Shown: positions 3,328 to 28,728, counted from the stretch's first letter. The stretch: 64,000 bases of DNA from an uncultured Gammaproteobacteria bacterium (GCA_964400625.1 CAYNUS010000004.1:26164-90163), one strand, 5' to 3'. Made by a program: numbers and translations. Notes: generated by a model not told the origin, from the sequence alone.

Positions 3328-4230
3328 TTATGCGTTGGCGAGCGCGGCGCGCCCGGCGGAGATTTCCGCGATCTCTTGAGTGATGCCGGCCTGGCGTGCC
3401 TGGTTGAAGGTGAGGCGGAGGTCGTCGATCATGTCGGCGGCGGCGTCCGTGGCGTTCTTCATCGCCAGCATGCGCGCCGAGTGCTCCGAGGCGAGCGATT
3501 CGAGGACGGCCTGGTAGAGCTGGGCCTCGGCCACGCGCGGCAGGAGCTGGTCGAGGACGGTGCGCGCGTCGGGTTCGAAGACGTATTCCTCGGCGGCCTT
3601 GGCGTTCGCGTGGACCTCCTCGTGTCCGCGGACCTCGCCGAGCTCGCTGTCGCGCGTGAGCGGGAGCAGCGTCTTGGCGCGGGGCTTCTGGAGGATCGAG
3701 GAGACGAAGTCCGTGTAGATGACGGCGACCTCGCCGTACTCCCCCGCCGTGAAGCCGTTCCTGGCGAGGCGCGCCAGCGGGCGGACCTTCGTGACCGGAG
3801 GGGCGCCGCCGGCGAGCACGTCGCCGAACGAGGCCTTGAGGGGGAGCTTCCGGCGCCGCGCCCACGCCTCGCCGCGGCGGCCGATGGCGATGACGTCGAC
3901 GGAGCCTTCCGGCCGCGAGCGGATGAACTCGTTCGCGACGCGGATCACCTGGGCGTTGAAGCCTCCGCAGAGGCCGCGGTCCGAGGTGACGAGGATCGCC
4001 AGCGCGCGCCCGGACTCCGGCTTCTTGAGGAGCGGATGCGCCTCCTCGCCCCTCTGCTCCAGCCGTGCGACCAGGCTCCACGCCATCTGCGCGTAGGGAC
4101 GCGAAGACAGCACGGCCGAGACGGCCTTGCGCATCTTCGAGGCAGCGACCAGTTCCATCGCCTTCGTGATCTTCTTCGTGTTCACGACGGACTTGATGCG
4201 GCGGTTGATGGCTTTCGTGTTGACTCCCAT
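3328..4230 (-). CDS. atpG: F0F1 ATP synthase subunit gamma
   Basis: 300 aa starting MGVNTKAINRRIKSVVNTKKITKAMELVAASKMRKA, the classic gamma N-terminus. Confidence 0.95.
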   Translation of the reverse strand: MGVNTKAINRRIKSVVNTKKITKAMELVAASKMRKAVSAVLSSRPYAQMAWSLVARLEQRGEEAHPLLKKPESGRALAILVTSDRGLCGGFNAQVIRVANEFIRSRPEGSVDVIAIGRRGEAWARRRKLPLKASFGDVLAGGAPPVTKVRPLARLARNGFTAGEYGEVAVIYTDFVSSILQKPRAKTLLPLTRDSELGEVRGHEEVHANAKAAEEYVFEPDARTVLDQLLPRVAEAQLYQAVLESLASEHSARMLAMKNATDAAADMIDDLRLTFNQARQAGITQEIAEISAGRAALANA

Positions 4231-25473: not shown

Positions 25474-25503
25474 AGCGCGCGGTAGCGTATCACGATTTCG
25501 CGG

Positions 25504-25534
25504 AAAAAGAAAGGCTCAACCGAGAGGTTGAGCC
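25504..25534 (-). terminator. Rho-independent terminator
   Basis: GGCTCAACC-gaga-GGTTGAGCC followed by TTTCTTTTT on the minus strand. Confidence 0.6.
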
Positions 25535-25753
25535 GTGCTGAGGGCCTTGGTGGCCAGATCGAGGAGCGCCAGAAGCGCTTCCTCCAGCCGATGCCCGACG
25601 TCGGGCAGAAAGACCTTGAGCGTAAGGAGCGTCAGGACGAGGAGGAAGACCTGCCGCATATTCCGGGGGTTAGACCCCGAGGGCGGCTTAAGGTTCCTCC
25701 TCGGGCACCGGCTTCGCGCGCGGCTCGAGGGCAATGTCCGAGGAGGACATACC

Positions 25754-25782
25754 TTTATATACGTTTTTTCCGATCTTGTCAA
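25754..25782 (-). promoter_or_regulatory. sigma70-like promoter (TTGACA-N17-TATAAA) on minus strand
   Basis: Reverse complement of 25754-25782 reads TTGACAagatcggaaaaaacgtaTATAAA. It is an AT-rich island in a GC-rich background, flanked by two terminators. Confidence 0.5.
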
Positions 25783-25793
25783 GCCGCGCATAC

Positions 25794-25822
25794 AAAGAAA
25801 AACGCCCGTCTAGAGACGGGCG
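25794..25822 (-). terminator. Rho-independent terminator overlapping the hom stop codon
   Basis: CGCCCGTC-taga-GACGGGCG followed by TTTTTCTTT on the minus strand. The TAG stop lies in the loop. Confidence 0.6.
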
Positions 25823-26936: not shown

Positions 26937-27935
26937 TCAGGCCCGGGGTTGGCGCTTCTTCCAGAGCCGCCAGACGATCCAGGCGACGAGGCCGATGGGG
27001 AGCAGGATGCCGCCCCAGACGATGACGACGTAGATGAGTCCGGCGACGAGGTCCTGCGCGGAGGCGACCAAGGTCTGCACGGCGCCGCGGAAGATGGCGC
27101 CGAGGCGGAACTCCTTGGTGGGAGCGCGGACGGTCGCCTCTTCCTCGAGCGAGACGGAGATCGTGGAGTAGGACGTCGTGTTCTCGAGGTACTTCAGGCG
27201 CCCCTCGTACGACTCGATGACGGAGCGGATCGAACCGAGGCGTTCCTGCACCTTGAGCGTGTCTTCGACGGTGCGGGCCTGCTTCAGGATCTCGAGGTAC
27301 GTCTCCTCTTGGGCCTTGGCGTTGCGGAGCTGGGCCTGGAGGTCGGTGTACTGCTCGGTGACGTCCTGACCGGTCGCGGTCTCATGCTTCACGAGCGTCG
27401 CGAGGCCCTTGATGGCGGACATCGCTTCCTCGAACTTCGCGACCGGCACGCGCACGCTGACGTCGCCGCCGTAGGTGCCGTCGCCGCGTTCGGTGACGGA
27501 CGAGCTCTGGACGAAGCCGCCGCGTTCGGTGGCGATCTTGGCGACGTCGGCCGCCGCGTCGGTCACCTTCTCGACCACCATGCGGAGGTAGCCGTTCTTC
27601 ACGATCTTCTGGTCGACTTCGGCGGCGGTCTGCCCGGCCGTCGGCTGGGGCGACGGGAAGTACAGCATGGCCATGTCGCGGCCGTCGTAGTCCGCCGGCG
27701 GCATCGGCGCGATCGACGGCGCCATCGCCTTGCCGGGGTACCCGCCCCCGACCGCCGATTCCTCGTAGGCGTAGGAGTCGGTCGTGACCCCCATCATCGC
27801 CTCGCCCCGGTCGAAGGCGAGCGGATACGGCTTACGGTCGTCCCATTTCACGGCCGCCGTGATGACCAGCGCGACCGCGAGGATCGCGAGGGCCGTCTTC
27901 GGCTTCTGCTTGAAGTACGCGACGAGGTTCGTCAT
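26937..27935 (-). CDS. DUF4349-like membrane-anchored protein
   Basis: Internal start MTNLVAYFKQKPKTALAILAVALV. Has an N-terminal TM helix, a coiled-coil middle, and a C-terminal TM helix. Confidence 0.55.
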   Translation of the reverse strand: MTNLVAYFKQKPKTALAILAVALVITAAVKWDDRKPYPLAFDRGEAMMGVTTDSYAYEESAVGGGYPGKAMAPSIAPMPPADYDGRDMAMLYFPSPQPTAGQTAAEVDQKIVKNGYLRMVVEKVTDAAADVAKIATERGGFVQSSSVTERGDGTYGGDVSVRVPVAKFEEAMSAIKGLATLVKHETATGQDVTEQYTDLQAQLRNAKAQEETYLEILKQARTVEDTLKVQERLGSIRSVIESYEGRLKYLENTTSYSTISVSLEEEATVRAPTKEFRLGAIFRGAVQTLVASAQDLVAGLIYVVIVWGGILLPIGLVAWIVWRLWKKRQPRA

Positions 27936-28032
27936 AGGTCGATGAAACTTAGTTTCTAGGCCCATTCTACCATGTCCTACGATCCCGCGCCTTTTCGGTA
28001 ACGAAAATCCCGCGCGGAGGGCGCGGGAGAGG

Positions 28033-28728
28033 CTAACCGTCGATGCCGACGTACTTGAGGTCCCGGAAGAGGTCCGGGCGGAGGTTGAAGAACCGCTGGT
28101 CCTTGGGCGGCTTGGCGTCGACCGCCTGGATGGAACTCCACTTGCGAAGGTCGCACGGGAACGCTTCCGTCGGGTCCGTGATCTTGATGATCTCGAGCGT
28201 GGTGCCGGCGCCCTTGGTGTAGGAGAACCGGTGGATGCCGTCGAGGACGGCGTGGCGGTTGGCGATCTGCTCGACGATGGGCGGCAGGTACTGGGCGATG
28301 GCCCGGTCCCCTTCCGCCGTCGTGCCGAAGATGAGGCTCGCGCCCTTCTTGGCGATGCCGTACGGCACGTCGTGCTCGTCGAACATGGCGGTGAACAGCT
28401 CATGCAGATCGTTGATCTTGCGGCGCTCGACGAAGGTCTGGCCGACCTTCGACATGCGCGGGTCCATGCGGTAGCGGTCGATGCGGCAGCCGGCGTACGG
28501 CTTCCGTCCGGGATCGCCCGCGAGCGGGACGCTCTCCAGCAGGCGCTCGAGGTAATCGAGGCGCATGTTCAGGATGTGGCGCGCCGAAACGATCTGCCGC
28601 GGCGACACGATGCGGTCGGCGCCGGACATCTGTGCGTACTCGCGCATGTCGATGCCGGTGCGGCGGCCGAACTCGGAAAGGTCGATGGGCAGGAACGAGG
28701 ACATGGGAAAGACCTCCGGTCGGCACAC
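28033..28728 (-). CDS. hypothetical protein (231 aa)
   Basis: Clean ORF with conserved-looking sequence, but no family recognised by eye. Confidence 0.5.
   Translation of the reverse strand: MCRPEVFPMSSFLPIDLSEFGRRTGIDMREYAQMSGADRIVSPRQIVSARHILNMRLDYLERLLESVPLAGDPGRKPYAGCRIDRYRMDPRMSKVGQTFVERRKINDLHELFTAMFDEHDVPYGIAKKGASLIFGTTAEGDRAIAQYLPPIVEQIANRHAVLDGIHRFSYTKGAGTTLEIIKITDPTEAFPCDLRKWSSIQAVDAKPPKDQRFFNLRPDLFRDLKYVGIDG

Follow-up and report, generated by a model that had tools for sequence, protein, structure and literature searches.

On its minus strand, between hom and an RlmI-like methyltransferase gene, the 64,000-nucleotide (nt) stretch of DNA analysed here (GCA_964400625.1, CAYNUS010000004.1:26164-90163; hereafter the window) carries a unit that is probably a monocistronic gene of about 250 nt, equipped with its own promoter and terminator and encoding a small membrane-type protein, the translation of which would be gated by the structure of its mRNA. 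A preliminary description of the window had outlined at this place an orphan promoter-terminator unit that could encode a leaderless peptide of 20 amino acids (aa) and, further on, a hydrophobic/amphipathic peptide of 47 aa, or could equally be a small regulatory RNA or a small membrane or toxin-like peptide gene. Its coordinates and peptides are all correct, and the small membrane or toxin-like peptide gene is the option favoured by the evidence; the 47-aa peptide is a conserved protein with about 34 family members, which reach down to approximately 35% identity. The locus is a solid small-gene assignment and not a categorically new system; new are the protein family and a predicted three-element switch, which is comprised of an anti-Shine-Dalgarno (anti-SD) element near the 5′ end, a decoy Shine-Dalgarno (SD) sequence 38 nt upstream of the start codon, and a second anti-SD element inside the open reading frame (ORF).

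The sigma-70-type promoter TTGACA-N17-TATAAA lies on the minus strand where it had been placed, and a direct pattern search that allowed up to one mismatch returned it as the single match in the window, against 0.00 expected from shuffled sequences. The generic promoter scan missed this site because its rule demands a T at position 6, the last position of the -10 hexamer. Both intrinsic terminators were likewise recovered by a terminator scan at the positions first given: that of hom, which forms the upstream boundary and is located outside the unit, and the unit's own, in which the hairpin is followed by a T-run reading UUUCUUUUU on the minus strand. The gene ends are compact: the TAG that stops hom falls within the loop of the hom terminator, and the TGA of the 47-codon ORF falls inside the 3′ arm of the unit's own terminator stem. 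Along the minus strand, TATAAA is followed by GGT, AUGUCCUCCUCGGACAU (which forms a hairpin of six base pairs), the 91-nt leader, the AUG at 25659, the 47-codon frame and the terminator, and the predicted transcript is likely to start within or just before the 5′ hairpin (25734..25750). The flanking genes carry the domains Homoserine_dh/NAD_binding_3 (hom, upstream) and PUA_3/Methyltrans_SAM (RlmI-like, hereafter rlmI, downstream). The latter gene has no SD; its extended -10-like element, TGATACGCT, is kept as TGnTAyGCT in L003, L008, L015, L019, and L020, and on this comparison is the downstream gene's own promoter, so that it marks the end of the unit.

The rlmI product is 88% identical to a protein in a “Candidatus Paceibacter” metagenome-assembled genome (MAG) and in a second MAG, an identity that assigns the window to high-GC Patescibacteria, and a query with the 47-aa peptide returned 12 called proteins of 47-49 aa, whose contigs supplied 11 distinct DNA versions of the unit in independent assemblies. 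The preliminary description had made its proposal depend on conservation in relatives, and the unit recurs in these 11 distinct Patescibacteria contigs (the “11 homologs” of all comparisons below). Conservation starts exactly at the -35 hexamer and stops at the T-tract while the neighbouring genes vary, as expected of the bounded unit that had been described. Both promoter hexamers and their 17-nt spacing are kept in 10 of the homologs, the spacer itself differing in sequence. The usual gene order is hom-unit-rlmI, and the others found are DUF4349-unit-hom (L011), hom-unit-other gene (L016 and L021), and 221-aa gene-unit-rlmI (L013). In a further contig found by synteny, L002 (JBBTWH010000001.1, 3790-3990), hom is absent and the unit has lost its 5′ two-thirds; DUF4349 stands directly before rlmI, and what is left of the unit is its last approximately 80 nt, which include an in-frame stop and the terminator, a state that suggests a recent deletion. 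Given the varied neighbours and the loss in L002, the unit is, as far as such comparisons tell, an autonomous and dispensable gene. A metagenome scan with the protein alignment returned only one locus, which was already in the set, and no further locus was found in viral contigs; the wider protein alignment was too variable for a pattern scan.

The ends of the unit show some lineage-specific variation. In L013, and also in L014, TTACCG-N16-TAGTAT replaces TTGACA-N17-TATAAA and lies 3 nt further downstream (L013 3867-3912), a shift that would cut into the 5′ anti-SD element, and the terminator hairpin is duplicated (4150-4196), the first copy being without and the second with a T-tract. In L011 (3183-3230) and L018 (319-365), the terminator hairpin of the upstream gene carries the unit's -35 hexamer TTGACA in its loop and reads ACGGGGG-TTGACAr-ACCCCCGT-TTTT, such that terminator and promoter share bases.

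Exhaustive HMMER and profile searches identified approximately 34 proteins, 12 of them close and about 22 distant, which measure 45-54 aa and all align from residue 1. They are named “hypothetical protein” where the source names them at all, and some are encoded in unnamed metagenome contigs. Members of the family begin with M-R/K-x; M1, F17, and P19 are invariant, and R2, L7, L12, L14, E26, and L33 are nearly so. The pattern M-R-x-[VI]-F...F-x-P...E was found in homologs that share the same start, and the window protein, being the query, matches it by construction. Because the distant family keeps both the start and these residues, and because conservation at the nucleotide level cannot yield such a pattern, the 47-codon ORF is, by these alignments, a genuine conserved protein gene of an undescribed family. 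Analyses of the reading frames agree with this assignment: frame 0 is the best of the six, having no stops, the least BLOSUM loss, and 38% synonymous codon differences against 14-32% elsewhere; conservative substitutions exceed random placement in this frame only (p = 0.005, compared with 0.17 and 0.91 in frames 1 and 2); and the sole indel within the ORF measures 6 nt.

No family match was obtained when both protein alignments were used in profile searches of Pfam, NCBIfam, PADLOC, PHROGs, and PDB, and a Foldseek search of the AlphaFold2 model against PDB returned nothing meaningful. The model itself, which was built from the wider alignment (predicted local distance difference test score of 87.5), comprises a helix at residues 2-17, a break at P19 within the invariant F17-x-P19, and a helix at residues 19-42. 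The hydrophobicity of the first helix would suffice for a membrane segment (2.0 in the best 19-residue Kyte-Doolittle window), the second is amphipathic (hydrophobic moment of 0.45), and 15 of the 47 codons specify Leu. Thus modelled, the product is most likely a small membrane-associated protein, in which a hydrophobic N-terminal helix would be joined to an amphipathic one.

The RNA carries constraint of a second kind. The 247-nt transcript is predicted to fold with -114.6 kcal/mol (z = -4.77), a value that none of 200 shuffled sequences equalled. Synonymous divergence (dS) from the window amounts to 0.025-0.20 in the ORF and to 0.35-0.66 in rlmI and hom of the same contigs, that is, it is 2-15 times lower in the ORF than in its neighbours, and codons 1-12 are near-invariant at the nucleotide level, synonymous sites included. 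Sequence variation instead sits in the loops of the predicted hairpins. When the proposed structure is laid over the alignment, 97.3% of cells are paired, against 34-47% with slid partners, and three pairs show compensatory changes, a number reached by 2 of 500 shuffles. The leader hairpin (25706..25736) has three further stem positions changed on both sides (A-U/G-C, U-G/G-C, and G-C/C-G). The stem of the start-codon hairpin shows a compensatory G-C to U-A change in L021, where CGG becomes AGG on the ORF side without altering the amino acid; the terminator stem shows A-U to G-C in L018 and L019, synonymous on both sides, and C-G to U-A in L013; and in three of four cases the ORF-side change in a compensated stem pair is synonymous. 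In the palindromic hairpin (25592..25607), the stem is invariant and the loop alone varies. Read in this way, the RNA of the unit is under structure-level constraint of its own, on top of coding.

The centre of the proposed structure is the SD-like element, in which CCGAGGAGGA (25704-25695) is complementary both to UCCUCCUCGG (25747-25738) near the 5′ end and to UUCCUCCUCG (25647-25638) within the ORF. Whereas 0.32 occurrences of the motif CGAGGAGGAA would be expected in the window, there are three, two of them in this unit. The probability that the SD-like element is unpaired is 0.00 in 10 of the 11 homologs, and its sole change, A to G, keeps the pairing as G-U. In all 11 homologs, the first 60-100 nt are predicted to fold as a long hairpin in which the 5′ element is paired to the SD-like element, and the full-length minimum-energy fold pairs the SD-like element with codons 5-8 of the ORF and leaves a small 5′ hairpin. 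The two folds differ by 0.3-6.8 kcal/mol of about -115 in the 10 homologs that were scored; the constrained energy of L008 was left out, since a non-canonical pair was forced and the value is unreliable. The helix between the 5′ and SD-like elements is 97.3% paired with one compensatory change (U-A to C-G), and that between the SD-like element and the ORF comprises 13 pairs, which are 95% paired, eight of them invariant, with changes that are wobble-compatible. In the final fold, the mean probability of being unpaired is 0.07-0.36 over positions +4 to +23.

A feasible model may be that the conserved and highly structured leader of about 91 nt, which offers no usable SD next to the AUG, governs access to the ORF in two steps. 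In the nascent RNA, the decoy SD would be held in the 5′ hairpin with UCCUCCUCGG, leaving the early codons free, whereas in the refolded full-length RNA its pairing with UUCCUCCUCG, together with the hairpin around the AUG, would bury them, from position +3 to +23. The lack of a usable SD, the masked start region, and the two near-isoenergetic folds together imply that translation is probably low and gated by the fold; it would be weak, and probably set by which of the two folds the RNA adopts.

The context of the start codon can be compared with those of other genes in the lineage. In three related contigs (L005, L008, and L011), an SD or an adjacent -10 element accounts for the start contexts of 24 of 39 called genes: an SD is present at 14 of the 39, against 12% at random positions, and TAnnnT lies 4-12 nt before the start at 11 of the 39, against 2% at random positions, one gene having both. 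In this Patescibacteria lineage, leaderless genes may therefore make up a large fraction of the total. For the small gene itself, an internal promoter that would make the main ORF leaderless was rejected, there being no -10-like element before the AUG. A split ribosome-binding site, in which a hairpin brings the SD next to the AUG as reportedly occurs in gene 38 of phage T4, was also rejected on inspection: with 38 nt between the SD-like element and the AUG, and with the AUG located within the intervening predicted hairpin, not after it, such bridging is unlikely, and the remaining spacing would still be too long.

Several observations weigh against a fold-gated protein gene. At the start of the ORF, no SD lies close enough to work and no -10 element adjoins it, so that neither of the two start contexts common in the related contigs accounts for its translation. 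Among the close homologs, variable sites are distributed as 14, 9, and 15 over the three codon positions, without an excess at the third; the site-wise synonymous fraction is 16/48 against 0.28 expected (p = 0.24); and the ratio of nonsynonymous to synonymous divergence (dN/dS) of the ORF is about 0.6. The G+C content at third codon positions is 0.77 in the ORF and 0.90-0.94 in the neighbouring genes. All close homologs except L003, which was reached via rlmI, came from a protein search of called genes, and the finding that the ORF is intact in all of them is biased because they were retrieved through called proteins; to this may be added the truncation in L002. No double-sided covariation is seen where the SD-like element pairs with the ORF, the ORF side being invariant, and the conservation of leader and switch covers one clade, for which column identity in the transcript alignment averages approximately 86%. 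The coordinates of all features are collected in Table 1.

Table 1. Features of the unit and of its boundaries (positions counted from the first nucleotide of the window; RNA elements are predicted).
Feature	Coordinates	Strand	Remarks
Promoter, sigma-70-type TTGACA-N17-TATAAA	25754..25782	minus	-35 at 25782-25777, -10 at 25759-25754
hom intrinsic terminator	25793..25822	minus	Stem 25822-25803, 8 pairs, 7 of them G-C, then TTTTTCTTTG; terminator scan
5′ hairpin AUGUCC-UCCUC-GGACAU	25734..25750	minus	Helix 1; 97% of cells paired
First anti-SD-like element, UCCUCCUCGG	25747-25738	minus	Within the 5′ hairpin
Upstream ORF of 20 codons (rejected), MSSSDIALEPRAKPVPEEEP + TAA	25688..25750	minus	ATG 25750, TAA 25690-25688
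Variable GC-rich leader hairpin	25706..25736	minus	Extension stem and tip; sequence differs, pairing kept
SD-like element, CCGAGGAGGAA	25694..25704	minus	38 nt upstream of AUG; shared partner of two exclusive helices
Hairpin enclosing the start codon	25653..25687	minus	Outer stem GCCGC:GCGGC; uses the G of AUG and codon 2; inner hairpin varies
Coding sequence of the 47-aa protein, MRQVFLLVLTLLTLKVFLPDVGHRLEEALLALLDLATKALSTAQPLG	25516..25659	minus	ATG 25659, stop TGA 25518-25516
Second anti-SD-like element, UUCCUCCUCG	25638..25647	minus	Codons 5-8; invariant in 11 homologs
Perfect palindromic hairpin UGCCCG-ACGU-CGGGCA	25592..25607	minus	Codons 18-23; helix 5; 100% paired
Unit's own intrinsic terminator	25503..25534	minus	Stem 25534-25513, 9 pairs, then T-tract TTTCTTTTTC; terminator scan
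Extended -10-like element, TGATACGCT	25484..25492	minus	10 nt before the rlmI ATG

A more speculative possibility is a type I-toxin-like or dual-function module of Patescibacteria, in which the three-element switch, acting during transcription, would determine the translation of a membrane-active peptide, in a lineage many of whose genes seem to be leaderless. We regard this as unlikely, albeit worth keeping in view. If it is true, we know of no earlier description of such an RNA-gated system, whether small toxin or riboregulator, in the Candidate Phyla Radiation.

A type I toxin in the strict sense, that is, a membrane-damaging peptide whose mRNA is silenced by SD/anti-SD pairing and by a cis- or trans-encoded antisense antitoxin, is a doubtful candidate. 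The peptide, of less than 60 aa, is small, hydrophobic, and helical, and the start region is masked in the predicted fold. In T1TAdb, the descriptors of a toxin mRNA are a 5′ stem-loop, a terminator, and an anti-SD that sequesters the SD of the ORF (PMC8594479); the unit has, besides its strong promoter, a conserved 5′ stem-loop, terminator, and set of SD-like/anti-SD helices, but its ORF has no SD of its own. Co-transcriptional alternative hairpins also have a precedent in aapA3 (PMC6733600), and the loss in L002 indicates that the gene is dispensable. However, the SD-like element stands 38 nt from the AUG, so that the sequestered element is not the SD of this ORF. Moreover, the gene is single-copy and syntenic in a neighbourhood of core genes, and conservation of the protein to about 35% identity with invariant F17 and P19 better fits a housekeeping small protein. 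No relevant match to a known toxin family was obtained in Pfam, NCBIfam, or PADLOC at E values up to 10. The 64-kb window contains no complementary locus or paralog, and no complementary stretch of more than 13 nt except the unit's own palindrome.

The plus strand of the leader shows some features of an antisense unit. The reverse complement of the 5′ hairpin (25734-25750) is followed there by ACCTTTATAT and resembles a weak terminator, and a TAAGGT-like motif (25688-25693, plus strand; TAnnnT antisense to the leader) is located about 60 nt upstream of it in 8 of the 11 homologs. The two could bound a short antisense RNA over the leader, as a type I antitoxin would require, but the promoter is unconvincing: TAnnnT comes without a -35 element or a TG extension and is missing in 3 of the 11 homologs, and the generic promoter scan was empty on both strands.

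Alternatively, the transcript may be a dual-function RNA, which would encode the small protein and also act as a base-pairing regulator, with the invariant CU-rich stretch and the CCUCC of the 5′ loop binding the ribosome-binding sites of SD-led mRNAs such as that of hom (CGAGGAGG). In favour of this are the near-invariance of codons 1-12, the ORF dS far below that of the neighbours, the presence of UCCUCCUCG twice in the transcript, and a faint resemblance to CcsR1; furthermore, about a third of the genes in the related contigs are SD-led, so that an anti-SD RNA could discriminate between gene classes. Yet the internal pairings explain most of the nucleotide conservation, though not that of the unpaired codons 9-12; the CU-rich elements are predicted to be paired and not exposed; and the CcsR1 match reaches 12.3 bits against a gathering threshold of 65.3. 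Such a regulator is thus considered improbable.

A purely non-coding structured small RNA, in which the 47-codon frame would be open through GC-richness and structural constraint, is still harder to sustain. The variation in hairpin loops, the lack of a third-position excess, the ORF without an SD, and the near-openness of two other frames (one to three stops in total over 11 sequences) would all be compatible with it, but the distant homologs of 45-54 aa keep the start and the hydrophobic pattern at 35-55% identity, and the signal of conservative substitution is specific to frame 0. The Rfam scan named as a check in the preliminary description gave no family match for the unit: there were no matches in the whole 64-kb window at gathering thresholds, and matches to the region at E values up to 10 were at chance level. 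Neither tRNA nor transfer-messenger RNA genes were found in the whole window. The suggestion that the unit could equally be a small regulatory RNA is therefore not borne out, and the distant protein homologs make an RNA-only unit very improbable.

The two weakest alternatives can be treated briefly. A leader-peptide attenuator or other cis-regulatory leader of rlmI, for which the Leu-rich ORF and a stop inside the terminator stem, 43 nt before rlmI, might speak, is scarcely credible in view of a downstream gene that varies among contigs (rlmI, hom, or other), the conserved extended -10 element that rlmI keeps for itself, the roughly 170 nt of unrelated sequence that follow the unit and precede rlmI in L003, and a peptide sequence that is itself conserved as a family. 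The leaderless mRNA for a 20-aa peptide that had been proposed is about as hard to credit and was rejected as a coding frame: an AUG or GUG stands at the predicted 5′ end in 10 of the 11 homologs and leaderless-type starts are apparently common in the lineage, but AAG replaces the AUG in L016 and GUG replaces it in L019, indels of 1-6 nt in the leader alter frame and length and fuse the frame to the main ORF in L018, and the AUG lies only 3 nt after the -10 hexamer, against 4-12 nt in the presumed leaderless genes of these genomes.

Some features of the surrounding DNA may be recorded here. The insert of about 170 nt in L003 (3836-4000; also in L005 and L006), to which a stretch in L014 (800-940) is similar, contains a GC-rich hairpin, CACCCCGCGGCGGCCGGGGTCC, and a second half-terminator copy with a T-tract just before the rlmI promoter; its origin as a decayed tandem copy of the unit was rejected, the alignment score being 17 against 18 +/- 2.8 for shuffles. 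An IS200/IS605-type Y1 transposase gene lies a few kilobases downstream of the unit in L008 (10247-10795) and L009 (5218-5691) and is not at that position in L005 and L011. The DUF4349 gene of the window (26937-28403, minus strand) has a longest ORF of 488 aa, in which the Pfam domain spans residues 265-475, and its relatives are called at 323-340 aa; its true start is probably internal to the longest ORF.

Patescibacteria are mostly uncultured organisms with tiny genomes, and their small proteins and regulation at the RNA level have hardly been explored. The locus described here represents a confidently delimited small gene of the sort that automatic annotation calls “hypothetical protein” or misses, and it founds a new family of approximately 34 proteins with sharply conserved F17, P19, and E26. 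It also offers compact, conserved, and mutually exclusive predicted helices around a decoy SD, which are testable in vitro without growing the organism, and an example of a long structured leader that is kept where the other genes of the lineage seem to be SD-led or leaderless. If the peptide were toxic or the RNA regulatory, the interest would be greater; otherwise, the unit is a well-supported ordinary gene for a small membrane protein.

Among known systems, the gene can be compared, in general outline, with the characterised small bacterial membrane proteins of the AcrZ, MgrB, and CydX type, with which it shares its size, a single hydrophobic helix, and a monocistronic arrangement; by contrast, it has no sequence relationship to them, and its second long amphipathic helix and its unusually structured leader without an SD set it apart. 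In architecture only, the protein also resembles TatA/TatE, being about 50 aa long and consisting of a hydrophobic helix at the N-terminus, a hinge, and then an amphipathic one, and the local F-x-P-E-[VL]-G-x-[RK]-L, which prompted the comparison, recalls the L-P-E-L-G-R of TatA. Membership was nevertheless rejected: none of 20 members matched PF02416 in Pfam at E = 10, and hhalign gave a probability of 13.9% against an approximate set of TatA sequences. Unlike TatA, the protein has no F-G hinge and no basic residues, and its second helix is acidic.

The resemblance to type I toxin mRNAs such as those of hok/sok, tisB/istR-1, aapA/IsoA, and zorO/orzO extends from the hydrophobic helical peptide of less than 60 aa with its own promoter and terminator to the long structured 5′ untranslated region with a 5′ stem-loop, the SD-like/anti-SD pairings with one anti-SD element inside the ORF, and, as predicted here, the alternative nascent and final folds and the masked start region. 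The differences are that no antitoxin RNA was found in the window, that there is no homology to known toxin families, that the SD-like element is displaced from the AUG, and that the gene is single-copy and syntenic with a protein conserved over a large divergence. With CcsR1-4 (RF02791) and the other “cuckoo” anti-SD RNAs, the unit has in common a CCUCCUC in a hairpin loop near the 5′ end and a short transcript that ends at a terminator; besides the low score of the match, it differs from them in architecture and in its conserved coding frame. Finally, small RNAs with a dual function, which encode small proteins in addition to their regulatory role, include SgrS/SgrT, RNAIII/delta-haemolysin, and SR1/SR1P, and the unit is similar to these in being a promoter-terminator unit of about 250 nt with a small ORF and conservation beyond coding needs, in contrast to which most of the conservation here is accounted for by internal structure.

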